Shown one piece after another: positions 16,188 through 48,180 of a stretch of 64,000 bases of DNA; the first letter of the stretch is position 1, and every line of letters starts with the position of its first letter. Below the pieces are notes generated by a model, which was given only the letters and a program-made list of their open reading frames with translations, did not search any database and had not been told where the DNA came from. The position numbers and the translations under genes were made by a program. The DNA is taken from the sequence record PQ511146.1; one strand, 5' to 3'. Source of the stretch: Escherichia phage NHEP1.

Positions 16188-16218
16188 CTCCAAATAGAAA
16201 ATCCCCGCCGAAGCGGGG
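16188..16218 (-). terminator. rho-independent terminator (UUCG tetraloop)
   Basis: Minus transcript CCCCGC-UUCG-GCGGGG followed by AUUUUCUAUUU; downstream of 16232..16612. Confidence 0.65.
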
Positions 16219-16231
16219 TGTGTCTTAGAAA

Positions 16232-16612
16232 TTAATCGTAGTGTGCCAAAATCTCTCCATCGTTGCAAGTCCCCTCTACGAAGTTGTGAAGATTCATGCA
16301 TTCATCTTGATAGAAGAATTTACCGCTTTTCAGCCGTAGACCAAACAACTCCGCATCTCCACGATGGCAAGCCTCTACAAGTTCATAGATTTCATACGGT
16401 AACTCTCCATCGTCATGGAAGAACCCCGCTTTATCGTTGACATAGATGAAGAAATAGTCACTGCTGTCGCAAGCGTCCAGTATTTTAAACCAGATTTCAT
16501 CCACATCTTTTTCTCGGATATCGATCACACAAGTGGAGCTGCATTCGTACTCCTTCTCCGGCTCCTCGGTCAATACCACCAAGTAGTTTCCCCGCTTACC
16601 TACTTTAGCCAT
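16232..16612 (-). CDS. hypothetical protein
   Basis: 126 aa ORF. Confidence 0.55.
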   Translation of the reverse strand: MAKVGKRGNYLVVLTEEPEKEYECSSTCVIDIREKDVDEIWFKILDACDSSDYFFIYVNDKAGFFHDDGELPYEIYELVEACHRGDAELFGLRLKSGKFFYQDECMNLHNFVEGTCNDGEILAHYD

Positions 16613-16621
16613 ACAACCTCC

Positions 16622-17806
16622 TCAAGCTTTAGCTAAAATGGCGCTAAACTCTTCACCAAACTCTTTTACAATCTTCATCAGGTTTGGGTATGCTTTGATC
16701 AGCTGAGCGACGATCTTGTCCCTGCCTTTACCAATAAGTAAGGCATTTCCTAAGGCGTTAGGTTTCATCATCGCCATAAAGACTGAGAATACAAAGTCTC
16801 GGTTCTCATCCTTGAAATTTTCCCAAAGGAAATCAAGGAAGTTTGCCACACAGCTGACAAGATCTTCGTCGGAGATACTTGCATTTTCCATCATATTACG
16901 AATAGCGATACAACCTTCTGACCCCAGAATCCACAAGATGTCTGGCTGCTTAGGACCTACATATTCTTTGCAGCCTCCTGCCATAATCCGACCGATTTCT
17001 GGCAAGTTTCGTTTCTTGGTGTGGTAGGTCCAAATTTCTACCGCTGCAGTGTGACCAATTGCACCTTGTAGAAGGACACGGGCCATAGCGTCAGAAATAA
17101 TACCGCTGTCAAAATCGTGCAGGATGTCAGATGCAGCAACCCAAGATCGCGGTGTGGCAAAAGATGGACAATTAATCTCAGCCATGGCCTCATAATTATC
17201 AATGGCTGATGGGACTCTTTTCAGATATCCAATTACAGAGGAGTGCACCCCATTAAGGAATGCATAGTCCTCAATAAACACCTCTGCACTGCTTGTAACT
17301 TCTACAATGATAAAGCGGTTAGCTAGAGGAGCTTCGAGCGCCGAAAGAACAGCACCGTCTGTAGCACGGTTACCTGCAGCTACAAAAACAGAGCCCTTAG
17401 GAAATGCATAGGTGCCGCACTTGTGGTCGAGCATAATTTGCATTGCAACCTTCTGCAGGTAGTTATCTGCATGAGTAAGCTCGTCTAGAAAGATAATTCC
17501 GCTCCAGTCCGGATCTGCAGGCCAAAATTCTGGAATTGCAAACACTGTACGTGTAGTCCCATCCGACTCTACAGGGATAGGTAGCCCAGATAAGTCAGCA
17601 GGGTCTTTATCTGACAGTCGCACGTCAACAAGGTTGTCATCTCGCTCACCGAACATATTATCAGCGATCTGCTTCATCACCTGACTTTTACCCACACCCA
17701 TTGGTCCCAAAATTAGGACAGATCGGCTATGACGTTGGGCAAACTGAATAATGGCTGGCAACTCACGGACAGTGATTTGACCACTTTCGAATACGTTTCT
17801 TGACAT
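16622..17806 (-). CDS. AAA+ ATPase, MoxR/CobS-like (AAA_5-type)
   Basis: 394 aa; Walker A ILGPMGVGKSQV, Walker B IIFLDELTHA. Confidence 0.75.
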   Translation of the reverse strand: MSRNVFESGQITVRELPAIIQFAQRHSRSVLILGPMGVGKSQVMKQIADNMFGERDDNLVDVRLSDKDPADLSGLPIPVESDGTTRTVFAIPEFWPADPDWSGIIFLDELTHADNYLQKVAMQIMLDHKCGTYAFPKGSVFVAAGNRATDGAVLSALEAPLANRFIIVEVTSSAEVFIEDYAFLNGVHSSVIGYLKRVPSAIDNYEAMAEINCPSFATPRSWVAASDILHDFDSGIISDAMARVLLQGAIGHTAAVEIWTYHTKKRNLPEIGRIMAGGCKEYVGPKQPDILWILGSEGCIAIRNMMENASISDEDLVSCVANFLDFLWENFKDENRDFVFSVFMAMMKPNALGNALLIGKGRDKIVAQLIKAYPNLMKIVKEFGEEFSAILAKA

Positions 17807-18108
17807 TAGTAAAAGTCCTCTACTTGTGTGTAAGTGTTTTCAAAGTTTTCCAAAACAGATGTCACATCGGATCTGTCAATATCGTACACAACTTCCCAGT
17901 TGTATGCAACCCTTTCTGCTGTTGCTTCTTCGGGACTTAACCGCCTACTGGGGTGAAAGAATGTTGGAGTGCACTTTCTTAGCTGTTTCCCGATTTTCCC
18001 ATAACAATACCTGTGGATAATTTTGTCAAAATTTAACTCTTTTTCTGCACAAAGTTCATGTTTCTGGTATAGCATGTTTATTACTCTTTTAAGTGGCCTC
18101 CTTGCCAC
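17806..18108 (-). CDS. hypothetical protein
   Basis: 100 aa ORF in compact minus-strand operon. Confidence 0.5.
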   Translation of the reverse strand: MARRPLKRVINMLYQKHELCAEKELNFDKIIHRYCYGKIGKQLRKCTPTFFHPSRRLSPEEATAERVAYNWEVVYDIDRSDVTSVLENFENTYTQVEDFY

Positions 18109-18114
18109 TACCTG

Positions 18115-18495
18115 CTAGAATGCAGTTCGAATCCAAACAAGGTTTTTATCTGCCCAATCATAAAGGCAAGTCATTGCACTGTTGAATTGCTCGCATGGTG
18201 GATAATCCTCTTCCATTCGGCGCATACCAGAACCTTGAGGGAAAAGACTCATTGCTGCAAACCACGAATCGTAGTCATCCACAGTGTCGAAGTAGTATAC
18301 AACATCCTCCAATTCAGGGTCGAATTTTAAATTATCAGGATCCAGCAGCTCAGGAAACTTGGCACGTAACTTGCCAGCTACGATACTTGCCAGCTCGCTA
18401 ACATGCTTGTTGTCCCAATCTACCAGTTTCCCGTCTTCATCGATGCGTCCTAGCCACTGTTCATGGAGATCAACTGTTGTCTTCCACTGTGCCAT
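18115..18495 (-). CDS. hypothetical protein
   Basis: 126 aa ORF. Confidence 0.5.
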   Translation of the reverse strand: MAQWKTTVDLHEQWLGRIDEDGKLVDWDNKHVSELASIVAGKLRAKFPELLDPDNLKFDPELEDVVYYFDTVDDYDSWFAAMSLFPQGSGMRRMEEDYPPCEQFNSAMTCLYDWADKNLVWIRTAF

Positions 18496-18497
18496 TA

Positions 18498-18755
18498 TCA
18501 GTCTACCTCTTCTTCCCGTTGCAGCTCAAGATACCCATAGGTCTGGATATCTTCAAGGGTGTGAAACTCCCCGTCAGCAGCCAAGGCGCGAACAACTTGG
18601 CGCAAAACTTTATGAGGGACTTCATCCAGCCCTAGATTCAGTGCAGGAAACACCTTATCTAAGTCAACAAAATAAACGAACTGTAGTTCACCAGCTTCAA
18701 AAGGTGTATCTTCAATAAACATCTTCTCGGCATTGGTCAAGATCTGCACTTTCAT
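18498..18755 (-). CDS. hypothetical protein
   Basis: 85 aa ORF. Confidence 0.5.
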   Translation of the reverse strand: MKVQILTNAEKMFIEDTPFEAGELQFVYFVDLDKVFPALNLGLDEVPHKVLRQVVRALAADGEFHTLEDIQTYGYLELQREEEVD

Positions 18756-19111
18756 TATTCTACCCCCTCTTCTTTTTCTTCAGCATTAGTTTCAGTGCTA
18801 CCCCACTCTGGAGTTTCCACCTCGATAGTAAACTCACGCACTACACGGTAATTGCCCATGAAGCGCTCCACTTCTTCAAGGCTTATGGAGAGGCCATTGG
18901 CAACCAAGTCTGCAGCACCCTTCTCTACCAGGTAGTCCAGATTGGCTTCCAAGGCTTCAGGCTCAAACCCTGTCAATGCAATCATATAACCTTCCCCTTC
19001 ATCAGGGAGGGCAATACAGCCCAACTGATTTTCTTTAAAAAAGCAGTGACCATCATTATTGATTGGGTGCTCATTGCAGTAAATAGCTGCACGATAAGTA
19101 ACTTTAGACAT
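18755..19111 (-). CDS. hypothetical protein
   Basis: 118 aa ORF. Confidence 0.5.
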   Translation of the reverse strand: MSKVTYRAAIYCNEHPINNDGHCFFKENQLGCIALPDEGEGYMIALTGFEPEALEANLDYLVEKGAADLVANGLSISLEEVERFMGNYRVVREFTIEVETPEWGSTETNAEEKEEGVE

Positions 19112-19123
19112 TGATAGGCCTCC

Positions 19124-19402
19124 TTAGGCAACTGTCATTTTACATTCTTTGAATTTTAGCACAAGACGGTGATTGTGTCTAGTGTCTAAAAAGATTTTTT
19201 CAACCATCAGGCACACGGTGTAACCGTCCATCTTATTGACAACAAAATCTCCAGGGTAAGGGAGAATGTCACCTGGACTGGGGAAACATAGCCCACTCAA
19301 GAAGGCATCGTCGGTGGTGGATTTAATGGATTTCCACACACTGTCTGCCTGAATATTTTCACCCACATAATATACACTACCACATGCCTTCATCATAGTC
19401 AA
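19124..19402 (-). CDS. hypothetical protein
   Basis: 92 aa ORF. Confidence 0.5.
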   Translation of the reverse strand: MTMMKACGSVYYVGENIQADSVWKSIKSTTDDAFLSGLCFPSPGDILPYPGDFVVNKMDGYTVCLMVEKIFLDTRHNHRLVLKFKECKMTVA

Positions 19403-20298
19403 ATCTCCGCGTAAATTAAACTGGAATCAGTATACTTCTTTAGTGGGTAAATATCCTGTCCATAGATGCCGTCATTAAACACCTCATCTACCCAAAGGCT
19501 ACACTTATATCCCATCATCTCTAAAACACCCATCTCTTCTTCGGTAAACTTATCACCGCTCTTGCAAGATGTCAATACCTCATTCTGTACTCTTGCCACC
19601 TCGAAGCGGTTATTGGCAATATCGCTATTAGCGATCAAATACTCACCCAAAGGGTGTGCGGCATTAAAGATGCACAGTGGACGGTTGACGTAATAGTCTC
19701 CAGGTGTATAAAAATTATTGAGGTCTTTCACTAGAACATTCTTATCAGTCACTTCATTCATAACATCATGCATATCGCACATCTTTATATGTTTGAGGAT
19801 TCCATCCCCCATCACAAAATAAAAACTTGCTGAAACACTTTCGGCATAGATCTTACTAGATCCGTTGTAGTTGTATTTTACTCGGATGCTAACGGGGGTT
19901 TTTCCTGTCGCGTTAGCCATCATCCAAAGAAATGGCAGCTCATACTTCTCCTCTGAGGAAACAAAAGGTGAAGTTGCCAGAGATCGGAAACCTCCAGAGA
20001 AGTTGAAAGTTACAGAACCGCTCCGGCGGTATGATACTGCGTATTCCACTTTTATATCAACATATCCGTTGGAGTAAGTATGCCCTCCATTATCAAGGTA
20101 TGTCCACTTATCGGACCCAGATACCAACCTCCGCTCAATTACCTTCATCACTACAGGGATTAGCGGATTAGTACAAACCGATTTTGAAGTAGCTTTATCA
20201 TCCAAAGCCTCGTAAATTGCAGAAAGGATATCACCTGCTGAGAGATTGGTTGTGATATCTTGTTTCCACCTGGTGCTAAAACTGTTAAGATTTGCCAT
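19399..20298 (-). CDS. hypothetical protein
   Basis: 299 aa; TAGGAGCAC SD before ATG; first gene after divergent promoter. Confidence 0.6.
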   Translation of the reverse strand: MANLNSFSTRWKQDITTNLSAGDILSAIYEALDDKATSKSVCTNPLIPVVMKVIERRLVSGSDKWTYLDNGGHTYSNGYVDIKVEYAVSYRRSGSVTFNFSGGFRSLATSPFVSSEEKYELPFLWMMANATGKTPVSIRVKYNYNGSSKIYAESVSASFYFVMGDGILKHIKMCDMHDVMNEVTDKNVLVKDLNNFYTPGDYYVNRPLCIFNAAHPLGEYLIANSDIANNRFEVARVQNEVLTSCKSGDKFTEEEMGVLEMMGYKCSLWVDEVFNDGIYGQDIYPLKKYTDSSLIYAEI

Positions 20299-20338
20299 GA
20301 GTAAGTGCTCCTATGTTAGTTTTCTTTTGAATGGGTGC

Positions 20339-20367
20339 ACTATATCGTGGATTTAGAGTAAAGTCAA
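20339..20367 (-). promoter_or_regulatory. sigma70-like promoter (TTGACT-N17-TATAGT) for leftward operon
   Basis: Read on minus strand: -35 TTGACT, 17-nt spacer, -10 TATAGT. Confidence 0.6.
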
Positions 20368-20380
20368 CACGTTTTTCAGG

Positions 20381-20409
20381 TTGACATCTTCTCAGGCACT
20401 TGGTAAGAT
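20381..20409 (+). promoter_or_regulatory. sigma70-like promoter (TTGACA-N17-TAAGAT) for rightward accessory operon
   Basis: -35 TTGACA at 20381-20386, 17-nt spacer, -10 TAAGAT; 14 bp from the divergent minus-strand promoter. Confidence 0.55.
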
Positions 20410-20440
20410 TTCTCCACCCACAGAGAACAAGAGACAACTC

Positions 20441-21430
20441 ATGAATCTTGAAAAATATTATACACCAGAAGAGTTAGAGCGCTTGCTCAAAAAATACAGA
20501 CGCAAACAGAATAACGCACGGAAACGGGATATAGAGTTCAACCTGTCATGGGAAGAATATCTCCTATTTGGTAAAAAACTTTTAGGAGAGGGAGTATGCG
20601 ACTATACCCTTATACCTTTCGACATGCACACAGATGAAAACGGACTGGGAAATCCTTTCTACCCATCTCTGGAGCGGATAGATGATGAAGGTCCTTATGC
20701 GGTTGACAATTGTTGTGTGGTGGGATTGAGATGCAACTCCCTAAAGGACTGCCTGGTAGATAAAAAGACCGCAGTCTTGATTAAAGACAAAACTGATCGA
20801 AAAATTGTCCAGCAGATGATGCTCCACCTGAGCGAAGAGCGTATGGAGAAATTGAAAGGTGATTACACTTTTGAAGATTTCATCTTGCAATATGGAACGG
20901 AAGAGGATAAACTAGCACTCTTTGACGAAGAATGGGAGGAAGATATGTCACCGATGCAGGATTTTAAAAACTTCATGGCTAATCGTGGAGCCAACAAGCA
21001 CATTTCTGACATTGTAAACGAGCCTGTAGTAGAGGAGATTGGAGAGATGACGCAACAGGCTTACGAAGAGGAAAAAGAGCCTCAAGTGGTCGAAGAAGAG
21101 CTTACAGAAGAGGTTCCTGCACTGCCTGACGATGTTGAGATTGCCAAAGCTTACACTTTCTATTGCCAGACGTTCTACGATGCAGGTATGAAAGTTGATC
21201 TGTCATTCAGCCAGTTTAAGAGCACATACATTCGAAAATGTTGTGCTTTAACTGGTGAACGTCTCGGTGCCGGACTTAAACCCCTATTAGTTACCGACTG
21301 GAACAAAGGTTTCACCAAAGGTAACTTCATGGTAGTATCTCCAATCATGGAGAAGGCTATGACAGACCTTATGAAGACCACTCGCATGACAATGACCGAG
21401 TTGGCTGGTATTTTCAAGCACGTTAAATAA
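20441..21430 (+). CDS. hypothetical acidic protein with two related Cys-containing segments
   Basis: Track ORF starts at TTG inside the promoter -35; first ATG is 20441; acidic linker EEEKEPQVVEEELTEEVP. Confidence 0.55.
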   Translation: MNLEKYYTPEELERLLKKYRRKQNNARKRDIEFNLSWEEYLLFGKKLLGEGVCDYTLIPFDMHTDENGLGNPFYPSLERIDDEGPYAVDNCCVVGLRCNSLKDCLVDKKTAVLIKDKTDRKIVQQMMLHLSEERMEKLKGDYTFEDFILQYGTEEDKLALFDEEWEEDMSPMQDFKNFMANRGANKHISDIVNEPVVEEIGEMTQQAYEEEKEPQVVEEELTEEVPALPDDVEIAKAYTFYCQTFYDAGMKVDLSFSQFKSTYIRKCCALTGERLGAGLKPLLVTDWNKGFTKGNFMVVSPIMEKAMTDLMKTTRMTMTELAGIFKHVK

Positions 21431-21435
21431 TGACA

Positions 21436-21450
21436 GGGGCCATTGGCCCC
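21436..21450 (+). other. intergenic hairpin GGGGCC-ATT-GGCCCC (possible weak terminator/attenuator)
   Basis: Perfect 6-bp GC stem between stop at 21430 and next start; weak U-tract. Confidence 0.4.
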
Positions 21451-21463
21451 TTCTGGAGTTTTA

Positions 21464-22924
21464 ATGGATAGCAGAAGTTCAGAAATCATTACCGCACAAA
21501 AAGATGATGCCTTGCGAATGCTGCAGGCCGCTCGCATGTACCTTCTTGAAAAGCTGCCGTTTTATGGCACACTGTTGTCAGGGTTGCAGTTCGTAGAAAA
21601 CCACACATGGTGCTCCACTATGGCAACAGACCATAAACGCATCTACTACAGCCCTGAGTTCATTATGGGGTTGGCAGATGAGCGTAAAACCATTCTTAAA
21701 GCATCTCTGACTGACAAGCAGTTTGAGATGGCTGAAGTTTTCTATTCCCCAAAATCTGTGAAAGAGGTGGCCTTTCTTCTGTCACATGAGGTGGGGCATA
21801 TTATCTGTGATCATCTGGTCCGTGGTAAAAGCTTTGAGCCGGAACTGTTCAATATTGCTTGTGATCACGTTATCAACACAGGTCTTGTGGTTGACTTTAG
21901 CAAGCCTCCTTGTGTTTTCTTCCCGAAGGGGAAAAGCACTGAGTTCGTAAAAGGTAAGCCTTTTGGCTTCTTAGCTAATTGCTACTGCGACATGAAGTTT
22001 CATGGATGGATTGCGGAGAACGTCTATGCAGTTCTTGATAAACAAAGAGATCAGAATGGCGGTAAAAGTAAGAACGGTAAAGGTGAGAACTCCCAAGGAG
22101 ATAAACGACAAACCGATGATCACATGAGCGGGAACGGTGGCACTAGTGATGATCTTGGAAAGGCTATGGGGTATGATCAGCCGCAACCAGTAATCAGTCA
22201 ATCGGATAAAGATCAGGCCATGCAGGACTCTGGTGACATGTTGGAAGCAGCAATGCAAGCTTCAGGAGGTCGTTGCCCCGAGGCGGTGCGCGAGTTTGTC
22301 AAAAACAGAGGCAAGCCTGTAATCAATTATATAGATATTATTAAGCAACGTATGTTATCTAAAAGAAAGGCTGAGTTAACCTACAGAAAACCTGGTCGCC
22401 GATCTGGGTCTTTGACCACCACAATGCGAAAAGTTGGAGCTATAAACAAGAATCAACACGTTATTGTTCCTGGTCGTAATCCGGAAAACACTATAGATAT
22501 TGTAGTGGCTTTAGACGTTTCTGGGTCGATCTCACAAAGAACTTTAAAGAAAATGTTCAATGAGATCACCGGGTTGTGCAATTTGTATAAAGAGTTTAAG
22601 GTTACGATGTTCTGTTGGTCAACCGAGGTTGGAGAGGTTAAAGTATACACTCGCGGTAACATCGATGAGATGATCAACTATGAGGTCCACTCAACATGGG
22701 GCACAACAGCCGCCTGCGTGTTCGAGTATCTTGATGCTAACATACCGAATGCAAAAGATGTCATCGTCCTTACCGACCTCTACTTTGAGCATAACTTTGA
22801 ACAAAAGGCTGTTGACAACAAGTGGAAAAAGTACGATACTTTATGGGTTCTCACCGAAGGGTATAATAAAAATTATATCCCGAGCTTTGGGAAAACTGTG
22901 GAATTAATCGAGTACGCTAAGTAA
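21464..22924 (+). CDS. metallopeptidase-like (HExxH) + von Willebrand factor A domain protein
   Basis: 486 aa; LLSHEVGHIICDH motif; C-terminal MIDAS-like VALDVSGSIS; track TTG start replaced by ATG after GGAG SD. Confidence 0.7.
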   Translation: MDSRSSEIITAQKDDALRMLQAARMYLLEKLPFYGTLLSGLQFVENHTWCSTMATDHKRIYYSPEFIMGLADERKTILKASLTDKQFEMAEVFYSPKSVKEVAFLLSHEVGHIICDHLVRGKSFEPELFNIACDHVINTGLVVDFSKPPCVFFPKGKSTEFVKGKPFGFLANCYCDMKFHGWIAENVYAVLDKQRDQNGGKSKNGKGENSQGDKRQTDDHMSGNGGTSDDLGKAMGYDQPQPVISQSDKDQAMQDSGDMLEAAMQASGGRCPEAVREFVKNRGKPVINYIDIIKQRMLSKRKAELTYRKPGRRSGSLTTTMRKVGAINKNQHVIVPGRNPENTIDIVVALDVSGSISQRTLKKMFNEITGLCNLYKEFKVTMFCWSTEVGEVKVYTRGNIDEMINYEVHSTWGTTAACVFEYLDANIPNAKDVIVLTDLYFEHNFEQKAVDNKWKKYDTLWVLTEGYNKNYIPSFGKTVELIEYAK

Positions 22925-22939
22925 GAGAGGATGGTATTT

Positions 22940-23197
22940 ATGGCAACAGAGGTAGTAATTAAAGCTGAACGCCCAGTTAAAAAAGCTATCAACACGTTCC
23001 CTGTAGGAACCATTGTGAGCATGATTACAGAGTCAGGCCGTGTATCTACACTGCTAATCGTGAAATCTGCATGCTCATCTTGTGTGTGGGCATACGATCT
23101 TGACGAGAAAGAACTGAAAGATTTTGTCGGGGAGCTGAAAGCAACAGAGCTTGACGCTCGTATCGAAGTATTTGGTGAAACTATGAAGGAAGAGTAA
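22940..23197 (+). CDS. hypothetical protein
   Basis: 85 aa; second ATG chosen for SD spacing. Confidence 0.5.
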   Translation: MATEVVIKAERPVKKAINTFPVGTIVSMITESGRVSTLLIVKSACSSCVWAYDLDEKELKDFVGELKATELDARIEVFGETMKEE

Positions 23198-23460
23198 TGA
23201 CTACAAAAATCACTATTGCAGAACCGAAAGCTAACACGCAACCTATCGAAAAGTTTAAATGCGGCGAGGTGGTAACATTTACACCAGATAATGAAGATGC
23301 TAAGATTTTTGCCATGGTAACAGCCGAGTGGATGTGTGACAATACCACACAGGTGCTGCGTTTTGACACCTATCTTACAGATGAAATCAGGAACGACAAG
23401 ATCGTGACTGGTGTGGATACTGAGATCATTTTCTACAAGAGCTTTTTAGAGGGTTTCTGA
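23197..23460 (+). CDS. hypothetical protein
   Basis: 87 aa; start overlaps upstream stop. Confidence 0.5.
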   Translation: MTTKITIAEPKANTQPIEKFKCGEVVTFTPDNEDAKIFAMVTAEWMCDNTTQVLRFDTYLTDEIRNDKIVTGVDTEIIFYKSFLEGF

Positions 23461-23461
23461 T

Positions 23462-23695
23462 ATGGCAAAAATTCGTAAATTATCCAGCAATCAGGTTGTG
23501 AAAGACTTTGAATCTGGAGAGATTCTGTATGTTCGTGATGCAGATGATGAAGGTGAAGATCTTGTTATGCTGGTAGGGCACGCTGAAGACGGATGCATCC
23601 AGGCTGTTTTTCTTGAAACAGCTGTGGTACACTGGATAGAGCTGGACCTGAAAGCACGAAAACCTAAAGCAGAAATCATTATTTACGAAGATTGA
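23462..23695 (+). CDS. hypothetical protein
   Basis: 77 aa. Confidence 0.5.
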   Translation: MAKIRKLSSNQVVKDFESGEILYVRDADDEGEDLVMLVGHAEDGCIQAVFLETAVVHWIELDLKARKPKAEIIIYED

Positions 23696-23711
23696 CAAAA
23701 AGGAGAGAGCC

Positions 23712-24161
23712 GTGTTGAGCAAACGTGAATGCGACAGCATTAGTCTGAATTCCTATAAGAAACAATGGTTTGGGGTAGAAGTTTGCCGACTGCGGCTAGG
23801 CTCCTACTTGAACTTCGTCTATTATGAGAGTGACAGCCGTATCGTCTCTTATGAAGTGTTCTACACTAAGAATACATTCGAGCTGAGACGTAAGGTGGAT
23901 GGCGGGAGATCTACCGCCCAGAATAATTGGGAAACTATTCTACCTCCAGATGTTATAGGAAGCCCCCTGAATGTATCTGAAGATGAAAATCTTATGGTTC
24001 ATGCTATGATGGGACTTGACAGCTTAGAGCTGGCGATCTATGATATGTCTATCGAAGCAGTTAAGCTGGACTACATCGAAAACACTTTAGAGGAAGGTAT
24101 CAAGAAGTTTCTCGGTGAGAAATTGAAAGCCCACTTTCATAAGGAGCTATATCTGTTATGA
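23712..24161 (+). CDS. hypothetical protein
   Basis: 149 aa; GTG start after AAAGGAGAGAG SD. Confidence 0.5.
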   Translation: MLSKRECDSISLNSYKKQWFGVEVCRLRLGSYLNFVYYESDSRIVSYEVFYTKNTFELRRKVDGGRSTAQNNWETILPPDVIGSPLNVSEDENLMVHAMMGLDSLELAIYDMSIEAVKLDYIENTLEEGIKKFLGEKLKAHFHKELYLL

Positions 24162-24403: not shown

Positions 24404-24405
24404 TC

Positions 24406-27136: not shown

Positions 27137-27145
27137 CTATAAAAA

Positions 27146-27172
27146 GAAAGGGGCCATTTGGCCCCTTTTTTA
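27146..27172. terminator. bidirectional rho-independent terminator between convergent transcription units
   Basis: AAAAAGAAAGGGGCC-AUUU-GGCCCCUUUUUU: 6-bp GC stem flanked by A-run and U-run. Confidence 0.75.
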
Positions 27173-35974: not shown

Positions 35975-36012
35975 TTAACACTTTAGAGAACAAAATGCAA
36001 GAACGGCATCCT
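35975..36012 (-). terminator. rho-independent terminator between the two fibre cassettes
   Basis: Perfect 8-bp stem GAACGGCA-(4 nt)-UGCCGUUC followed on minus strand by UUGCAUUUUGUUCUCU. Confidence 0.6.
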
Positions 36013-36030
36013 TGCCGTTCTGACCTTTGT

Positions 36031-40081: not shown

Positions 40082-40767
40082 TAACCCTCCTGTCTAGTTG
40101 CGTTTACTGTAATACTTTCACAATAAATGGTTGTAGTGTCCCAATCAGGTCTTACGTCAGGAACATATAACAAAGTAGCCAGCCCACCAACCCCGAACTG
40201 ATTTTCTTCCCACACTGATCCAAAGCCGAGAGCTGTAGAGTCCCCTTCAAAACCAAAAGCTTGCCCTTGCGACTCCGTAAGACGCAAATGACAAGGCAAT
40301 GGCAGCATATCCAAGATCTGGTCGATAGACTGCAATATGTCAAAGCAAGTTTTTCTAATGTTTATGTCAAACCTGAAATTGTCACCTTTCCACGTATCGA
40401 AATTATCTCTTCCGAACAACTGTCGTAAGGTGGAGATGACATCTTCGCGAGTACCACCTCTTGATGATGCTGCCTGCTGAATAATCAGTGTAGCACGAAA
40501 ATCCGCATCTGAAAGCCCATTCCGAAGAATACCAAGTTGATTACCAACTTCGTCAAGGTATCTTCCGCTGGCATTGTTAAGCAGTCTTCCTTCAGCCAAA
40601 CCTACCAGCATCTTATCAACATTCTCCAACCTTTTAAGGTACACGGTTAAGAATGTGACTAAATTAACCTTCTCAGCCAGAAAATCTCCAGGTAGGTAGT
40701 CAAGACCCCCCTGAACAAAATCTGGCAGAGTGTGGATGTGGTTGACATCCGACTTAATCTCTGCCAT
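40081..40767 (-). CDS. baseplate protein, gpI-like position
   Basis: 228 aa; immediately downstream of Baseplate_J-like gene with overlapping stop/start; assignment positional. Confidence 0.35.
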   Translation of the reverse strand: MAEIKSDVNHIHTLPDFVQGGLDYLPGDFLAEKVNLVTFLTVYLKRLENVDKMLVGLAEGRLLNNASGRYLDEVGNQLGILRNGLSDADFRATLIIQQAASSRGGTREDVISTLRQLFGRDNFDTWKGDNFRFDINIRKTCFDILQSIDQILDMLPLPCHLRLTESQGQAFGFEGDSTALGFGSVWEENQFGVGGLATLLYVPDVRPDWDTTTIYCESITVNATRQEG

Positions 40768-40778
40768 ATCTCGCCGCC

Positions 40779-42269
40779 TTAAATAGTTTGTTGGAAAGTT
40801 ATATTACTTTCGTCGAGGTCAAACACCTCGGTCATGTTTGCAACAATATCGTTTGTAGTGTAAGCTTCGTCAGAGGCTCCTACAGGTTTAACTTGAATTA
40901 CCAATCTGTTAAATCTGCCTATCGACACAGCAGCGGATGCAGCACCTACCAATTGGATATTGTACAACGTATCGGCGACATCCAAGCCGTTAACAACCTG
41001 TAAAAGAGCCTCTACAATGGCATCTTTTTCGGTTGTGGAAAGCGCAGCACCTGAGTAGGTAATTCTTACATCTAGGCGGTAGGTATTTGCCTTGGAGTAA
41101 TAAATCCTTTCAGTCTGACCGTCTGATGTGGTAATATCGTAGAAGATATTCCCATAAGTTCTGTTTGTGCAAGCTATGGTTTGATACAGTGCCTGACAGA
41201 TATCCTCTGTTGCACCACCAAACACCACCACTTGAAACTTATAAGGTGGTATACCTTTCGCATCCGTTTTATCGGTGTTGTTGGAGAACACTCTTACTTT
41301 CTCAACACCTTTCACCTCGCTTACAGCGCTAAGGATTGCAGGACGGGTAGCTTTAGATGTCAGCTGTTTAGTGCTGGAAGCTCTTAAGCGATACTCAGAG
41401 TCTTTCTCAACATCCCTACCCTCATTGAATCTTTCTCGGTTGGTAAGCTTGATAAATCCACTGGGAGTAGGTGACATTGTTGTCACGGTTTCTGCCTCTC
41501 TTGACAGCTCACCAGCCTCGTTAGCGATAACATCTAGGGTGATAGTTCTTTCCCCTACAATCGGGGATACTCTGAAATCTACCCTGCTATTAAGTCCAAC
41601 TTGATCAAGATTCGAATTGTACCCTATCCACAACGTCCCTGTCAACATATCTATCTGAATTAGATCATCATTCAGCAGGGTTGTATTATCGACAATGAAT
41701 TGCTTAATCTCGCCGTAAAAGCTTGGCAAATCAGAAGAGTCCAGAGCCTTATCTGTTAAAACCAGACTTTTTGTTTTGATACTTCCGTCTGTCTGGTTGG
41801 TAATTTGAAAGTTGTATTTCCCAATTCTTAGGTCTGGAGCGTTTATTCTGTGAGCAATAAGATTTCCCGCCACCTGCACATCGTTGCTAAGAACAAAGTT
41901 GCCACTGTCCAGCGTATAAGTTTTGGAATCATAAATCATATTGTACGGCACAGTTGTGTTGATTGTCAACTGGCAGGTACCTGATGATTTAGAACGGCCT
42001 CTTCGGTAAATACCCTGTCTTCCAAGAAGCTCATCCAGGTAAATACCTTCTGCCCCATATAGCGTCTGTGATGCGTATACAGATGCTGCCATAAGAATAA
42101 GTTGATATTCTCGCTCGTTGAAAATAGTGGTCAGCTTATCTGCAACTGAGTTACTTTGTACGTTGAAGTTTTCGCCAAAAGCACGGATCAGGCTTTGCTT
42201 AGTTTCAACGATTAGGTCATTTAGGGTTGGTATAACGAAACCAGCCTCTGTCAATCCATACTTAGCCAC
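40779..42269 (-). CDS. baseplate wedge protein, Baseplate_J (gp6/gp47/XkdT-like)
   Basis: 496 aa; N-terminal GLTEAGFVIPTLNDLIVETKQSLIRAFG, central YRLRASSTKQLTSKATRPAILSAVSEVKGVEKVRVF and C-terminal region fit Baseplate_J pattern; GTG start after GGAGGAG SD. Confidence 0.65.
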   Translation of the reverse strand: MAKYGLTEAGFVIPTLNDLIVETKQSLIRAFGENFNVQSNSVADKLTTIFNEREYQLILMAASVYASQTLYGAEGIYLDELLGRQGIYRRGRSKSSGTCQLTINTTVPYNMIYDSKTYTLDSGNFVLSNDVQVAGNLIAHRINAPDLRIGKYNFQITNQTDGSIKTKSLVLTDKALDSSDLPSFYGEIKQFIVDNTTLLNDDLIQIDMLTGTLWIGYNSNLDQVGLNSRVDFRVSPIVGERTITLDVIANEAGELSREAETVTTMSPTPSGFIKLTNRERFNEGRDVEKDSEYRLRASSTKQLTSKATRPAILSAVSEVKGVEKVRVFSNNTDKTDAKGIPPYKFQVVVFGGATEDICQALYQTIACTNRTYGNIFYDITTSDGQTERIYYSKANTYRLDVRITYSGAALSTTEKDAIVEALLQVVNGLDVADTLYNIQLVGAASAAVSIGRFNRLVIQVKPVGASDEAYTTNDIVANMTEVFDLDESNITFQQTI

Positions 42270-42302
42270 GTCACTCCTCCGGTATGAAAATCTCTACAAG
42301 GT

Positions 42303-42331
42303 ATTTTACCAAATTTTGTAACAATAGTCAA
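42303..42331 (-). promoter_or_regulatory. sigma70-like promoter (TTGACT-N17-TAAAAT) upstream of Baseplate_J-like gene
   Basis: Read on minus strand right after the terminator: -35 TTGACT, 17-nt spacer, -10 TAAAAT. Confidence 0.55.
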
Positions 42332-42336
42332 TCTGA

Positions 42337-42366
42337 GCATAAAAATAAACCCCGCCGAAGCGGGGC
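42337..42366 (-). terminator. rho-independent terminator (UUCG tetraloop) after the 1381-aa gene
   Basis: Minus transcript CCCCGC-UUCG-GCGGGG then UUUAUUUUUAU; same hairpin as at 16203-16218. Confidence 0.7.
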
Positions 42367-42374
42367 TTTAAAGG

Positions 42375-45300
42375 TTAGTCGTGAGACTCGTTCCAAGGTC
42401 CCTGGAAGCTTGAGTTAGAACGACTAACGATCACAGTGGGACAGGAGATTGTGACACCTGTCACGCTAGACGTTGACCACGGTGTGTAAATCTCGATAAC
42501 AATGTCTATAGTTTGTTCACCCAGACCTGTTATCCCTACCGCACACATGCCGTTGTTGTCGTTAAAATACTTCTTGCCAGCAAGGATCTGATGACCAGCT
42601 ATCCATGCATTCAGCTGGGAGCTGGCAAGAGTACCATTCAGTTTAAAGAAGAATGTTACGTTCTTACCCTGACCTGAAACGTTATCTACGTATCTCCACC
42701 TCCAACGGCAAACCCTTTGCCGGGAGTTGTATACTGGAGCACAATCTCCGTAAGTCCTGTGTGCAACAATCGCACCTTCGAACTGGTTAGCACGGATAAC
42801 GGAAGCTTCTACACGTCCACGGAATGTACCTCCTGTTGCATCTATGGTTCCTCTAAAGCTACCGTTGTTGGCATAAACATCCCCACGGAAGGTGCCACTG
42901 GTAGCGTTAACTGCCCCTGTGAAGTTACCTGCACTAGCGTTGATGTTACCTTTCACCCACACATCCATAAACTGGGCGTGCCCGTTCTTGTTAATATACC
43001 AACCGTATTTGTGGTACCCGTTGCCATCGTAGTTGTTTGACGAAATTTCTTGCGCGATCTTGGCAGAAGAGATCGTGCCGTTCTCTATAAAAGCGTCTTT
43101 CAAGAACGCTTGGTTGTTCTTGATTGCGAAAGCAAGGGTTGCTGTTCCATTGCCTGGGTTGTATACCGCAAAGTTGTTTGCGCTAACCATGAAATATGAC
43201 TGAACTTGGCCTCCAGAGCCTTCCATGCCTAACTGGATACCTGCCACATACTTATTCCCTGCGGAGTCTACCTGTATTTTTGTGCCCCATTGAGCATTTA
43301 CTTTGCCCTCTAAGTCGGTCACAGCCTTAGATGTTGTAGCCACTGCAGCTCTGAGTTCGGTCACATCTCCAACATCATCAATAATCTCCTGCTTAGCAAC
43401 AGCAAGTTCTTGACGAATAGCTGACGCTGTGCCATTAATAAGGTCAACAGTAGACTTATTAGTTTCAGAAATATTCGCAGACAATTCTTTCTTAGTCTGA
43501 GTCAGCTTATTATCCAACCCGTTAATGTTATTGGTGTTGGTTGTAATCTGCCCTTTAGCAGTGGTTAACTGCTCAGTCAAAGCTGCCGTTTTCTGATTCA
43601 ATAGGTCAGTTGTGGCCTTGTTGGTGGTAGAAATCAACGTATTAAGATCAGACTTGGCGGTGTTTATCTTACCATCAAGCGTGGTGTAGTTTTTGGACAC
43701 TGTGGCGTTGGTCTGGCTAATCTTCTGGTCAAGAGTCTCAGAAGTTCTGTTCAGCAAGTCCACAGTGGCCTGGTTAGTGCTCAGAATGCTCGCATCCAAC
43801 TCAGATCTTTGAGTATTCAACTTGCCCTCTAGGCTCTTATCACCAGCCAGATAGCCTTTTTCAACATCTCCGATCTGCTCAGTCAACTCTCCCTGTGCAG
43901 CAACCAGTTTTTCATCCAACGCCTCTGTTTTCTTATTAAGAAGATCAGTGGTGGATTTGTTGGTTGACTCAATCAAGGATGATAGTTTAGCACTCTCATT
44001 TTGCAGGTTGTTGGTCAACTCACCTTTCGTTGCTGTCAGCTTGTTATCTAAAGCCTCAGTTTTCCGATTAAGGAGATCTGTAGTCGTTTTATTGGTTGAA
44101 ACAATTAGAGAGTTCAGCTCAGAGCTTTCCTGTGCCAAAGCATCTTCCAATTCACCCCTTGTTGAAACAATCTTCTCGTCCAAAGCTTCAGTTTTCTGAT
44201 TTAACAGATCGGTTGTAGCTTTGTTAGTGGTCTGTATTAGAGAAGTCAGCTTACCACTTTCTTTAGAAAGATCATCTGCAAACTTGTTCTGAGTGGCTAC
44301 CAGTTTCTGGTCTAGAGTGGTAAGCGTTCCATTAACGTCCTGGAAGTTGTCGTGGGTTTCTTGGATGAATATTCCAACCCTATTCCCCAACTGAGCATAC
44401 AGCTTGTCTACTCTAGAGAACTCACCTTCCATGTGGTCAAAAGCCTCGTCAACTCTACCATCCATGTACCTGTTAAGTTCTGTGACACGATTTTCAACCT
44501 CTTCAATAGAGGAATCTAAAGTGCTCATCAACTCTTTATAAGTTTCTGTCTTTTTAAATTCAGCATCTATCTGAGGCATCAAATCTTCAATAGAGGTGTA
44601 GCAGCGTGCAGCGCATTCTATAAACTGAGAACTACCAAAAGCGTTTGTGGTTCGAATATACCAATAATAGATCTTATCGTTCTGCAGACCTTCAGATGTC
44701 CAAGTTGAACCAACACCCATACGAGTGGCTTTTGAAGTAACGGTTGCATCACTTGTGTCTGGCAACCTTGTCATACCAGATGTCCAAAAGTCATACTGGG
44801 TGCTTACACTTGCTAAGTCCCTGCTGTGCGGAATCAAGGTGATAGCAAAGTATCCCTGCTTAACTTCTACAGAAACCGGAGCTTCAGGTGCCTGAATGTT
44901 AAACTCGCAGTACGCTTCTGGAGATACACCACCTTTATAAGATGTTGCAACCACGGTTGCTGTGTATGACCCTTTGGTCAATCCTTCTACACGGACAAAC
45001 TGCTCTACTGTTTGTGCTGTCCAAATAATTTCTCCGTTCTTTCTTACCTGCACAATATTTTGAGCATAAGTTCCAACGTTGTCCCAAGCCAAAACACCAT
45101 GAGTTACTTCCCCAGCTTGAAGAACAGAGTATCTGAAGTTTTGCGGTTGAGCTACGCCGGACGGGGATATCGGAATATCCACATCGCCAGAATCCGGAAG
45201 TTGCCCTGTGGCATCATTCCACTCTTTAGCATCTTGACGGAGTTTTACCTTGACACCGCCCTTTTTGGTGAACTCCCACTCAAGAACCCTCATTTCTTGG

Positions 45301-46520
45301 CCCACTATACCAATACTTGGAAGGTCCATCGTAACGTAACGCCCAGGCTTAAATTTAAAACCCCGCATATTGCAGGTTACTTCAATAATCCTACCAGCTC
45401 TGGCACGTCTTAAGAAGATTGCAGAAACACGCTGAGCTTGATAAGGACTGGTAACAAAGCGATAATCTATATCGATTATCTTTCTTTCTCCATCCTTCTC
45501 TATCCACTCTGGGACAAACACTGATGGAAAATCTGTTTCAGAATATCCTTTAGCCGGACTAGTGAATCTGCCAGTTATTGTGTTGGATCTTTTGTCGAAG
45601 GAGGCTTCAGGATAGATCTTAACCTCACCGCAAACACAGTCCTCACTCAGTGTCATTGTTGCCGGGCCATAGTATGCACCTACCAGCAGACCATATTTGC
45701 CAGCTACATAGCTAAGGTCTGCACCACAAGCTTTCAGCATCTCTGCCATAATGCTTGCTGGTGCTTCATCCATGTCGAACTCGCCATTAATGGTGTAACG
45801 GCGCTCACTGGTTCCGTCCGCGTTTTTTACAGCCTCGTCGCATATGTTGGCAGCTTCCTTGAAGGACTCCCAGTTGATGGTTTCGTCAGGACATTTAAGG
45901 TACGTTCTTAGATAGTCCAGAATCACCAAGGCAGCGTTGTTGGTATACACCTCTTTACTGATACGAGGATCATAACATTTTTTACCAACCTTGACGAGTG
46001 TAACGTTTGGCAACCCAAAAGGAAACTTGTTAGGGTCAAACTTAAAGCTGGCACGTAGCCAACTGATCCCTCTACCTATCATGTCTGGTGACCACGAAGG
46101 GCAGTGTGTGCCCATGAAAGGATCAGAGGTTTTCCTGTCGTTATGCAACTCCCACGATACCAAATCCCCATACGAGGAAATAGGATTACCGTCGATAAGT
46201 ATATCTTCTATACCTTCCAAGGGATGATTGGCAAGAACAATAGCACAATGAAGGGTTCTGTCCCTGTCCTGCTCTAAAAACGCAAGCAATCCAGATGTGC
46301 GTGTCTTCCCATATACTACAGAGCAAGGTGCAGCAGAAGATCTGAGAAGTTTTTGTCTATCTTGTTGACTTCTGTAAGATTTGTTGCCTTCGAAAATCTT
46401 ATCAAGGGTTCTGGTGGTAACAGTGTTCAGGCTGTCAGCCAGAGCTGCCTTGGATGCGTTCCAGTCATAGCTCGAAGATCTTGCAGAAGCAACGATGTTA
46501 TCAATCATTGCAATTGGCAT
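42375..46520 (-). CDS. lambda gpJ-like host specificity / central tail fibre protein with expanded coiled-coil repeat insert
   Basis: 1381 aa; FN3-like segment (APEAPVSVEVKQGYFAITLIPHS ... YYWYIRTTNAFGSSQFIE) and YVAGIQLGMEG... segment resemble recalled lambda J; six 44-57 aa repeats (L[TNS]SLI.[ST]TNK.TTDLLN) between them. Confidence 0.55.
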   Translation of the reverse strand: MPIAMIDNIVASARSSSYDWNASKAALADSLNTVTTRTLDKIFEGNKSYRSQQDRQKLLRSSAAPCSVVYGKTRTSGLLAFLEQDRDRTLHCAIVLANHPLEGIEDILIDGNPISSYGDLVSWELHNDRKTSDPFMGTHCPSWSPDMIGRGISWLRASFKFDPNKFPFGLPNVTLVKVGKKCYDPRISKEVYTNNAALVILDYLRTYLKCPDETINWESFKEAANICDEAVKNADGTSERRYTINGEFDMDEAPASIMAEMLKACGADLSYVAGKYGLLVGAYYGPATMTLSEDCVCGEVKIYPEASFDKRSNTITGRFTSPAKGYSETDFPSVFVPEWIEKDGERKIIDIDYRFVTSPYQAQRVSAIFLRRARAGRIIEVTCNMRGFKFKPGRYVTMDLPSIGIVGQEMRVLEWEFTKKGGVKVKLRQDAKEWNDATGQLPDSGDVDIPISPSGVAQPQNFRYSVLQAGEVTHGVLAWDNVGTYAQNIVQVRKNGEIIWTAQTVEQFVRVEGLTKGSYTATVVATSYKGGVSPEAYCEFNIQAPEAPVSVEVKQGYFAITLIPHSRDLASVSTQYDFWTSGMTRLPDTSDATVTSKATRMGVGSTWTSEGLQNDKIYYWYIRTTNAFGSSQFIECAARCYTSIEDLMPQIDAEFKKTETYKELMSTLDSSIEEVENRVTELNRYMDGRVDEAFDHMEGEFSRVDKLYAQLGNRVGIFIQETHDNFQDVNGTLTTLDQKLVATQNKFADDLSKESGKLTSLIQTTNKATTDLLNQKTEALDEKIVSTRGELEDALAQESSELNSLIVSTNKTTTDLLNRKTEALDNKLTATKGELTNNLQNESAKLSSLIESTNKSTTDLLNKKTEALDEKLVAAQGELTEQIGDVEKGYLAGDKSLEGKLNTQRSELDASILSTNQATVDLLNRTSETLDQKISQTNATVSKNYTTLDGKINTAKSDLNTLISTTNKATTDLLNQKTAALTEQLTTAKGQITTNTNNINGLDNKLTQTKKELSANISETNKSTVDLINGTASAIRQELAVAKQEIIDDVGDVTELRAAVATTSKAVTDLEGKVNAQWGTKIQVDSAGNKYVAGIQLGMEGSGGQVQSYFMVSANNFAVYNPGNGTATLAFAIKNNQAFLKDAFIENGTISSAKIAQEISSNNYDGNGYHKYGWYINKNGHAQFMDVWVKGNINASAGNFTGAVNATSGTFRGDVYANNGSFRGTIDATGGTFRGRVEASVIRANQFEGAIVAHRTYGDCAPVYNSRQRVCRWRWRYVDNVSGQGKNVTFFFKLNGTLASSQLNAWIAGHQILAGKKYFNDNNGMCAVGITGLGEQTIDIVIEIYTPWSTSSVTGVTISCPTVIVSRSNSSFQGPWNESHD
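43390..44290 (-). repeat. diverged tandem repeat array (about 132-bp units) encoding coiled-coil repeats inside the J-like gene
   Basis: Recurring DNA blocks with ...gttggt...gaaa... cores near 43440, 43600, 43940, 44070, 44200; protein repeats LTSLIQTTNKATTDLLNQ / LNSLIVSTNKTTTDLLNR / LSSLIESTNKSTTDLLNK etc. Confidence 0.6.
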
Positions 46521-46957
46521 TAATACCTCCAGACATCAACAACGATAGAATCTTTCATGTCGAACATAAAGATCCCTTTATCACCTTTCGCCCAAATCTG
46601 GTTGTTCCAGAACACACCAGCGGTGAGCCCGTTCAGACCTTCGAAAATAACAATATCACCACGCTGAACCTGTTTAGGAGTATCCAGTCGAGTCAAAAAG
46701 AGATCAAAAATAGTAGGCAGATGTGTGGTTTTGAAACGAAGCATGCACCATCTCTTGCTTTCCAACTCTGTTTTATACGTTCCTTCAAAGTTAGAAAGAA
46801 AATCTGTTCCGTATTGGGCATCAACACACTTAGCCGCAAAAGTGCAGCAATCGTGGAATCCCCATTCAAACGGGATGGTGGCTTCTTCGTCAAACACTTT
46901 CCACAATCTTTCTTGCCAGTCCACTAAACGAGGGTGTGTGCTCATTAAACCTCCCAA
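46520..46957 (-). CDS. tail-associated NlpC/P60-like peptidase (tentative)
   Basis: 145 aa; FEWGFHDCCTFAAKCVDAQYG with candidate catalytic Cys; immediately upstream of J-like gene. Confidence 0.35.
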   Translation of the reverse strand: MGGLMSTHPRLVDWQERLWKVFDEEATIPFEWGFHDCCTFAAKCVDAQYGTDFLSNFEGTYKTELESKRWCMLRFKTTHLPTIFDLFLTRLDTPKQVQRGDIVIFEGLNGLTAGVFWNNQIWAKGDKGIFMFDMKDSIVVDVWRY

Positions 46958-47511
46958 ATGATCGGGCGGCTTGCCACCTGATCCACATATTTAAAAAATC
47001 TGTCATTATCGTTTCTTGAGCTATGGCTCTCCTCTGTGTACCGATAAGGAAAACCTCTTAACCAGCTGTTGAAGATGGAAGATATGGATATGGACAAAGC
47101 ACTATTCTCCCCTGTCTGAATAGCCATGTCTGTTATAAGGCCGTCAAACAAGCCATTGGTTGTAACAGGTAAACCATTCTCCATAGCTGTGATATACAAC
47201 GTGGCACGACAACCCGAATACTCCGTCTTCAGCAGATCACCTACATACTTGGGATCAAACCCGTTCAATGTTGCTACCACAGATCCGAAGTTGGTGGCAT
47301 CTTTCTCAGACACAGCAGTCAATGTTGCTGATCCACCTATCCCTATAAAATGTTGCCCCTCAATCACCACAACACCAGTTCCTGAGCACACCCTGACAGT
47401 CCCTGTTGGTAGCTCTAGCTTTGCAGCAATTAAGATCTCAACACTATCAAGCTCCAGCTTTTCAAGAAATAAATTATCTAATGGCGCTCTAATCATCTTA
47501 GAAATCCTCAA
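46945..47511 (-). CDS. tail tip assembly protein (hypothetical)
   Basis: 188 aa; overlapping stop/start with neighbours. Confidence 0.4.
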   Translation of the reverse strand: MRISKMIRAPLDNLFLEKLELDSVEILIAAKLELPTGTVRVCSGTGVVVIEGQHFIGIGGSATLTAVSEKDATNFGSVVATLNGFDPKYVGDLLKTEYSGCRATLYITAMENGLPVTTNGLFDGLITDMAIQTGENSALSISISSIFNSWLRGFPYRYTEESHSSRNDNDRFFKYVDQVASRPIIWEV

Positions 47512-48088
47512 AGAAGTTGATAACTATATTATCACCTTTTTGCATAGCATCGACTTTTTGCTTAATTTTATAAATATCTCTGATATGAAACCTACCCTTT
47601 GGGGATTGAGTTATTATCTTCATAGTGTCCCCTGCGGCAATAGGTTTTCTAAGTCTTGGAGATATGCTTATAACAGCAGACCCAACACCATCGCTGCGCA
47701 CTGGAGCTGTTACCACTTTCAATTCATCGTTAACAGATATTTTATCCCCAGCTCTGGCTATGTCTCTGTTTGGCTCCCATCCGACCGTCTTCAAAAAATC
47801 GTCGTTACCAGTAGGCCCAAGGGCGATTGGCTCATTAGCTGTTACTGAGTGACCGTACGTTTTAATAAGAAAAATGTTCCCATCTTTATACACCTGATCA
47901 ACAAAGCTCTTAAGCTCTAGCAGTTGTGACTCGCTGATATTGGAAACCGTCAAAGTGCCTTTCCAGTTAGGTGTGGCATAGGTCACTTTTTGCGTTTTAC
48001 CTGTAAACGGACTTTTAAACGTAACAATATCTGCCAGCAGCTCCAATCTGATGTCTGGAAGGTATCTAGGCCTTTCCCATAAAAACAT
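47498..48088 (-). CDS. tail tip protein (hypothetical, distal-tail-like position)
   Basis: 196 aa; first gene after terminator 48148-48180. Confidence 0.4.
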   Translation of the reverse strand: MFLWERPRYLPDIRLELLADIVTFKSPFTGKTQKVTYATPNWKGTLTVSNISESQLLELKSFVDQVYKDGNIFLIKTYGHSVTANEPIALGPTGNDDFLKTVGWEPNRDIARAGDKISVNDELKVVTAPVRSDGVGSAVISISPRLRKPIAAGDTMKIITQSPKGRFHIRDIYKIKQKVDAMQKGDNIVINFFEDF

Positions 48089-48147
48089 TGTGCCTCCAGG
48101 TTAAACAATCATGATAGTTATTTTACCAGATTTTGAGTTAATACGCA

Positions 48148-48180
48148 ATACAAACAAAAAGCCCCCGCCGAAGCGAGGGC
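48148..48180 (-). terminator. rho-independent terminator (UUCG tetraloop) after the 1272-aa fibre gene
   Basis: Minus transcript GCCCUCGC-UUCG-GCGGGGGC then CUUUUUGUUUG. Confidence 0.65.

Follow-up and report, generated by a model that had tools for sequence, protein, structure and literature searches.

Why does a near-identical hairpin recur at several places in one phage genome, and what does it do there? The question is raised by a stretch of 64,000 nucleotides (nt) of Escherichia phage NHEP1 (PQ511146.1), the whole of which is called the window below, where four G+C-rich stem-loops with a UUCG loop are found (the 16203, 42347, 48161 and 62353 hairpins). The original prediction, made on these letters, regarded them as a recurrent terminator family that may also serve as a processing or protein-binding element. 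Judged from its sequence, the window is part of a Vequintavirus genome, that of an rV5-like myovirus of E. coli: its closest DNA relatives are Vequintavirus phages (ECP32, Murica and relatives of rV5, at 93-100% identity), the nearest being vB_EcoM-ECP32, and most genes near the four hairpins lie on the minus strand. The answer that we reached is that the four hairpins are real and rightly read as terminators, yet ordinary and previously annotated.

Four UUCG hairpins with the layout of intrinsic terminators

The four hairpins and their neighbours are given below, with gene functions taken from PHROGs and from the ECP32 annotation.

16192..16218, minus strand: predicted intrinsic terminator, equivalent of rV5 t003; hairpin CCCCGC-UUCG-GCGGGG at 16218..16203 with the U-rich tail AUUUUCUAUUU at 16202..16192 (as DNA, CCCCGC-TTCG-GCGGGG then ATTTTCTATT); 13 nt past the stop of the open reading frame 16232..16612 (126 aa, function not assigned); the next gene, for a SleB-like hydrolase, starts 20 nt from the hairpin 3' end.
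42337..42368, minus strand: predicted intrinsic terminator; hairpin AAGCCCCGC-UUCG-GCGGGGUUU at 42368..42347 (core 42365..42350), then AUUUUUAU (as DNA, AAGCCCCGC-TTCG-GCGGGGTTT then ATTTTTATGC); 6 nt past the stop of the 1381-aa tail fibre gene 42375..46520; the next gene, for the baseplate wedge, starts 77 nt from the hairpin 3' end.
48151..48180, minus strand: predicted intrinsic terminator, equivalent of rV5 t041; hairpin GCCCUCGC-UUCG-GCGGGGGC with one U.G wobble, then UUUUUGUUUG (as DNA, at 48180..48161, GCCCTCGC-TTCG-GCGGGGGC then TTTTTGTTTG); 7 nt past the stop of the 1272-aa tail fibre gene 48188..52006; the next gene, for the distal tail protein, starts 72 nt off.
62343..62376, minus strand: predicted intrinsic terminator, equivalent of rV5 t052; hairpin AAGCCUCACC-UUCG-GGUGGGGCUU, then UUUGCUUUUA (as DNA, at 62376..62353, AAGCCTCACC-TTCG-GGTGGGGCTT then TTTGCTTTTA); 16 nt past the stop of the 157-aa virion structural protein gene 62393..62866, which adjoins the tail sheath gene; the next gene, for a tail assembly chaperone, is 122 nt away.

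All four belong to one tetraloop class, reading C-TTCG-G on the minus strand, that is, UUCG closed by a C-G pair (C 5', G 3'). The plus strand at the sites is CCCCGC-CGAA-GCGGGG or a variant form; both the UUCG loop and the U tract are features of the minus (coding) strand. The cores of 16203 and 42347 are the same over 16 nt, that of 48161 departs from them by a single substitution, which gives the U.G wobble, and the 62353 stem is unlike the other three and has the C(UUCG)G cap in common with them. Stems are of 6-10 bp with 6-7 G-C pairs and loops of 4 nt, and each is followed on the minus strand by 5-7 T within the first 8 nt, the weakest tail being that of 16203 (ATTTTCTA). Folded as RNA, the four have predicted energies of -14.0, -16.5, -16.9 and -20.4 kcal/mol, and their z-scores relative to shuffles lie between -2.95 and -4.73.

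A census of both strands was made for tetraloop hairpins of at least 5 bp with at least 4 G-C pairs, a T tail being defined as at least 5 T in the next 8 nt. Exactly four TTCG-loop hairpins were found in the window, the four already reported, and first-order Markov simulations of the window gave a mean of 0.10 with a maximum of 1 in 300 runs. The recurrence at these positions is therefore borne out, with four hairpins seen where about 0.1 would be expected by chance. With up to 2 mismatches, the 14-mer CCCGCCGAAGCGGG has 3 matches against 0.12 expected, a number that none of 100 shuffles reached. Among the strong T-tailed tetraloops of the window, TTCG accounts for four of eight, the composition expectation being 0.0034 per loop; the remaining loops are UCCG, GAAA, AAAU and UGAC.

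The whole-genome motif search suggested along with the original prediction was carried out on the complete ECP32 genome (133,317 bp), and only six TTCG-loop hairpins of census quality were found there. Four of them are those of the window and two more are on the plus strand, after the ribonucleotide reductase alpha gene and after a ClpP-like gene. All six lie within gaps between annotated genes in sense orientation, and the T-tail filter is passed by five, the exception being the 90549 copy after the ClpP-like gene (tail TATGATCTGG). Moreover, TTCG is the most frequent loop of T-tailed tetraloop hairpins in this genome.

What was established directly is the sequence of the hairpins, their predicted fold, their position and orientation, how far relatives conserve them and how they had been annotated before; from these we infer termination, its efficiency and a stabilisation of the RNA. 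Each hairpin combines a stable G+C-rich stem-loop, a U-rich tract on its 3' side and a sense, intergenic position after a stop codon, and structure is kept at two of the three syntenic sites compared. This suggests that the four are terminators of the canonical intrinsic (Rho-independent) type, acting on the RNA polymerase of the E. coli host, a reading that we hold with a probability of roughly 0.9.

As the G+C-rich inverted repeat is transcribed, the nascent RNA would fold as a hairpin of 6-10 bp, and its extra-stable C(UUCG)G cap would nucleate folding quickly. Forming against the weak rU:dA hybrid of the U tract, the hairpin would then release the transcript a few nt downstream. The 42347, 48161 and 62353 hairpins would in this way close late structural transcripts (of the two tail fibre genes and of the structural gene adjoining the tail sheath gene), and a promoter box about 30-90 nt past each of them would restart transcription for the next genes. 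Stable 3' hairpins generally slow 3' exonucleases, and on this general ground the hairpin retained at the 3' end probably shields the transcript from such enzymes.

The hairpins are annotated as terminators in close relatives

In the rV5 genome paper (Kropinski et al. 2013, Virol J 10:76; PMC3606486), ARNold and MFOLD were used to predict 20 rho-independent terminators. Table S4 of that paper gives t003 as CCCCGCTTCGGCGGGG ATTTTCTATTT, t041 as GCCCTCGCTTCGGCGGGGGC TTTTTGTT and t052 as GCCTCACCTTCGGGTGGGGC TTTTTGC, and places the promoters P036, P040 and P051, together with a late motif, beside the terminators. Escherichia phage Murica (KT001917.1) carries "terminator" features at all four homologous sites, the sequences under these features being the same hairpins, and in the HdK5 record the 16203 homologue is annotated as a terminator with a note of -16.3. 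The three rV5 terminators and those of Murica have the hairpin sequences of the window without change and in the same places, in genomes whose DNA is 92-100% identical to it. There is no difference of substance, the listing of the 42347 copy (taken up below) being the only discrepancy, and all of these annotations are predictions. The four terminators are thus already known.

Promoter-like sites follow three of the four hairpins

A promoter-like site lies downstream of the hairpin in three of the four spacers (42347, 48161 and 62353).

42303..42331, minus strand: promoter-like site, equivalent of rV5 P036; TTGACT, 17 nt, TAAAAT, with the extended -10 box TGGTAAAATA at 42311..42302; downstream of the 42347 terminator.
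48119..48128, minus strand: late-promoter-like box TGGTAAAATA, equivalent of rV5 P040; downstream of the 48161 terminator.
62274..62302, minus strand: promoter-like site, equivalent of rV5 P051; TTGACA, 17 nt, TAAAAT, with TG; downstream of the 62353 terminator.

The box TGGTAAAATA is present on the minus strand at 42302-42311, 48119-48128 and 62274-62283, and it is found as TATGrTAAAATA in four other Vequintavirinae genera (upstream of the baseplate wedge gene, and after the tape measure gene). Boxes of this type stand after terminators and ahead of late structural genes. A late-promoter motif TggTAaAAtA had been proposed in the rV5 paper (PMC3606486), and the conservation of the box across genera strengthens that proposal.

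Hairpin and T tract are kept across genera while stems turn over

An IMG/VR search for relatives of the baseplate gene returned 3 near-identical loci with little diversity, and GenBank phages of other genera were used instead. The comparators were the structural modules (about 41 kb) of Seunavirus SPLA5a, Mydovirus K45PH128C2, Certrevirus CR3 and Henunavirus pEp_SNUABM_01, whose baseplate wedge proteins are 51-61% identical to that of the window; the K45PH128C2 record is poorly annotated, and for it sequence alone was used. Three syntenic sites were compared, before the baseplate wedge gene, after the tape measure gene and after the tube gene (the 62353 position). Ahead of the baseplate wedge gene, each of the four distant genera carries in the spacer a hairpin and T tract followed by the TATGrTAAAATA box, with stems that differ:

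Seunavirus: AAGGGGC-TTCG-GCCCCTT (core stem GGGGC/GCCCC).
Mydovirus: AACCACCC-TCCG-GGGTGGTT (core stem CCACCC/GGGTGG).
Certrevirus: AAAGGGAGCC-TCT-GGCTCCCTTT (core stem GGGAGCC/GGCTCCC).
Henunavirus: AAACCCGC-TTCG-GCGGGTTT (core stem CCCGC/GCGGG).
The window: AAGCCCCGC-TTCG-GCGGGGTTT.

After the tape measure gene, the four distant genera have (A)AAGGGG(G)C-TTCG-GCCCC(C)TT where the window has AGGGGGC-TCCG-GCCCCCT, and changes in length are matched on both arms (GGGGC/GCCCC versus GGGGGC/GCCCCC). A different and weaker hairpin, lacking the UUCG loop, is kept at the post-tube site in the three distant genera examined. Hairpin and T tract are therefore kept at two of the three syntenic sites across five genera, with stems that are different or length-matched. 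That position and structure are kept at these first two sites and the sequence is turned over is what selection for a terminator predicts. For the remaining hairpins, the search for distant comparators gave no homologues outside the genus for the protein upstream of 16203, and no syntenic equivalent of the 48161 site was present among the distant genera examined.

Points that weigh against termination

Several observations speak against reading all four hairpins as plain terminators, and the first concerns the 16203 copy. Its tail AUUUUCUAUUU is an interrupted U tract. The GTG start of the SleB-like hydrolase is at 16182, so that only the 20 nt of 16182-16202, including a GGAG ribosome binding site, separate it from the stem, and this leaves no room for a promoter. 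If the genes downstream are to be expressed from upstream, 16203 cannot terminate efficiently. The gene for the SleB-like hydrolase and rIIA behind it would depend on read-through or on unrecognised internal promoters, and the hairpin would have to be leaky, passing a good share of the polymerases as an attenuator does.

At the 42347 site, a metagenomic rV5-like contig (IMGVR_UViG_3300010279_000001, L008, at about 610-625) has a UUAG loop on an unchanged stem, showing that the UUCG loop is preferred and not obligatory. The 42347 copy is also missing from the ARNold/MFOLD terminator list of rV5 Table S4, though Murica annotates it. Finally, a literature search for 3'-end mapping or in vitro termination data on Vequintavirinae phages found none.

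The same hairpin is widespread in unrelated phages and bacteria

Is the hairpin then peculiar to these phages? The exact 16-mer CCCCGCTTCGGCGGGG is present in at least 120 stretches of IMG/VR viral contigs, which fall into at least 102 mutually dissimilar groups, with none window-like or rV5-like among the matches listed. A T tail (at least 5 T in 8) follows on the TTCG strand in 98 of the 125 viral matches listed and on the other side in 20 of 123. The 16-mer is also present in at least 120 stretches of bacterial genomes from many phyla, including Pseudomonas, Stenotrophomonas, Burkholderia, Aeromonas, Bacteroidetes and Actinomycetota, with a T tail in 85 of the 120 listed. The T-tailed share of these unrelated occurrences is thus 71-78% among the matches listed. 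A motif specific to rV5 was ruled out, since the exact 16-mer is common in unrelated viral contigs and bacterial genomes, and mostly T-tailed there.

A further parallel is TE of phage T7, an experimentally characterised intrinsic terminator for E. coli RNA polymerase. It is a G+C-rich hairpin capped by C(UUCG)G and followed by a U-rich tract, and over 16 nt (CTCACCTTCGGGTGGG) it matches the core of the 62353 hairpin exactly. TE also resembles 16203 in having the next gene close behind it, with ribosome binding site and start codon within about 20 nt. RefSeq labels it "E. coli transcription terminator TE" (NC_001604, position 7588; GGCTCACCTTCGGGTGGGCC then TTTCTGCG). T7 belongs to an unrelated phage family (Autographiviridae) and the flanks are non-homologous; the similarity of TE to 62353 is therefore convergent.

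C(UUCG)G hairpins are said to be over-represented at the ends of transcription units, in T4 intercistronic regions and in E. coli, according to Tuerk et al. 1988 (PNAS) and d'Aubenton Carafa et al. 1990 (J Mol Biol). The review PMC3972237, citing Tuerk 1988 and d'Aubenton Carafa 1990, states that UUCG and GAAA tetraloops nucleate unusually stable hairpins serving as rho-independent terminators. The C(UUCG)G hairpins of T4 intercistronic regions and of E. coli rho-independent terminators have the same extra-stable tetraloop and C-G closing pair as those of the window. They do not differ in kind from the latter, in which UUCG caps four of the eight strong tetraloop terminators, with six hairpins genome-wide.

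An alignment of the four intergenic regions showed similarity limited to the hairpin, the T tract and, in two copies, the promoter box, with a mean column identity of 58%. Moreover, once the closing C-G pair is fixed, only 32 all-G/C stems of 6 bp are possible; therefore, it is unremarkable that two out of a handful of such terminators should be identical. As far as these comparisons go, the likeness of the hairpins is convergence on an extra-stable hairpin, a functional class reached many times independently, and not common descent. That enterobacterial and phage terminators are enriched in C(UUCG)G caps has long been known, and the recurrence in the window reflects this. Of the proposed terminator family, what stands is the terminator type, considering the G+C-rich stem, the C(UUCG)G cap, the U tract, the sense orientation right after stops and the annotation in near-identical phages. 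The special family does not, since the likeness stops at these functional motifs and the 16-mer is widespread elsewhere.

Other explanations

The hairpins might have a main role other than termination, as a processing site, a stability determinant or a site for a phage or host RNA-binding protein. Transcripts must often traverse the 16203 hairpin, which lies 20 nt ahead of a start codon with no promoter between, and the slowing of 3' exonucleases by stable 3' hairpins would suit a stability determinant. We regard this role as improbable all the same. A U tract, needed by termination and needless for a stability or binding element, follows every copy, as does a T tail in the majority of the unrelated occurrences listed above. 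Sequence-specific recognition is argued against by stems that are swapped freely between genera and by loops that vary (UUCG, UCCG, UCU, UUAG); UUCG loops are in general compact caps that rarely make protein or tertiary contacts. An Rfam 15 scan of the whole window gave no family at gathering score, which, as Rfam is without generic terminator models, excludes only known structured RNA. The processing or protein-binding role added in the original prediction thus finds no sequence sign of a dedicated binding partner, and stems and loops are replaced freely between genera.

Two more specific proposals, which we consider highly improbable, are that a phage factor (an antiterminator or RNA-binding protein) recognises the UUCG hairpins and times read-through, or that the units of terminator and TGGTAAAATA after the two big tail fibre genes are recombination cassettes for fibre exchange. 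The clearest candidate for read-through timed by a factor could be 16203, with the SleB-like hydrolase gene and rIIA/rIIB downstream and no promoter between. Positive support for either proposal was absent from the results obtained here.

Descent of the hairpins from one dispersed element, for example a mobile terminator-promoter cassette that promotes exchange of tail fibre genes, would account for two copies with an identical 16-nt core and a third one base off. It would also account for 42347 and 48161 each standing after a large tail fibre gene and both being followed by the box AAAATyTGGTAAAATA. The model for such an element is the PeSL (promoter-early stem-loop) of T4-type phages, after Arbiol, Comeau and Krisch (2010), a mobile cassette whose copies reportedly share extended sequence and mark recombination junctions. 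PeSLs resemble the window's spacers in pairing a terminator stem-loop with a promoter between genes, several times per phage genome. The copies of the window differ from them in that the likeness is limited to functional motifs, without similarity beyond hairpin, T tract and promoter box in the intergenic alignment, and the spacing from hairpin to box is not the same (38 versus 34 nt for 42347 and 48161). In the comparison with Murica (one genome pair, 41.7-63 kb), the sole break of similarity is inside the fibre gene, at 43466-44532, and not at a terminator. A PeSL-like cassette was rejected on both counts, extended homology between copies and, in the Murica pair, breakpoints at the copies. 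Considering also that many bacterial phyla and at least 102 mutually unrelated groups of phage contigs share the 16-mer, and that with 32 possible stems an identical pair is not improbable, we find common descent very hard to sustain.

The stems are perfect inverted repeats, so that extrusion is possible in principle, and yet an action at the DNA level (cruciform, recombination or packaging signal) or functionless chance palindromes have next to no credibility: four hairpins were seen against 0.10 expected, and all copies of the window and the six of ECP32 are sense and intergenic with the T tract on the transcribed side only, an asymmetry that a DNA palindrome would lack.

Further terminators and observations

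Besides the UUCG hairpins, which we read as intrinsic terminators, the window has other terminator-like hairpins.

59076..59093, minus strand: predicted sister terminator after the tape measure gene, rV5 t049; AGGGGGC-UCCG-GCCCCCU, with a UNCG loop.
8091..8112, minus strand: predicted terminator with a GAAA (GNRA) tetraloop, rV5 t232; GCCCUGCCC-GAAA-GGGUGGGGC then UUUUUGC.

The GAAA terminator (GCCCTGCCC-GAAA-GGGTGGGGC, 8091-8112) is repeated almost identically over 22 nt at another place in the genome (rV5 t213 and t232). In ECP32 the pair lies at 118957-118978 and 129101-129126, and this recurrence is longer than the UUCG one. On the plus strand, a strong hairpin GGGGAGG-AGTG-CCTCCCC with a T-rich tail on that strand stands at 10744-10761, in the spacer between two minus-strand genes, and its ECP32 counterpart at 130349-130366 has the same arrangement and a 9-T tail; from this layout, it could be an antisense-facing terminator. 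The spacer that precedes the rV5 P030 equivalent holds, at 36000-36021 on the minus strand, the hairpin AGAACGGCA-AGGA-TGCCGTTCT, which has a T-rich tail and is not among the terminators listed for rV5. The palindromic hairpin AAGAAAGGGGCC-ATTT-GGCCCCTTTTTT at 27144-27171 stands between convergent plus and minus gene blocks and has a T tract on either strand; its rV5 counterpart is the bidirectional terminator t026/t027.

A separate observation concerns the database records related to the window: 16-18 unannotated "Campylobacter phage" entries of GenBank (MG0656xx, host Campylobacter jejuni) are 93-100% identical to this coliphage DNA. They are probably mislabelled, or derived from contaminating coliphage.

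Meaning for rV5-like phages

The importance of these results is mainly one of annotation, and their useful outcome is negative, neither a new repeat family nor a regulatory RNA being at hand. As terminators, the hairpins would show where late transcription units end in an rV5-like phage of therapeutic or biocontrol use, and they may be reused as compact terminators in synthetic constructs.

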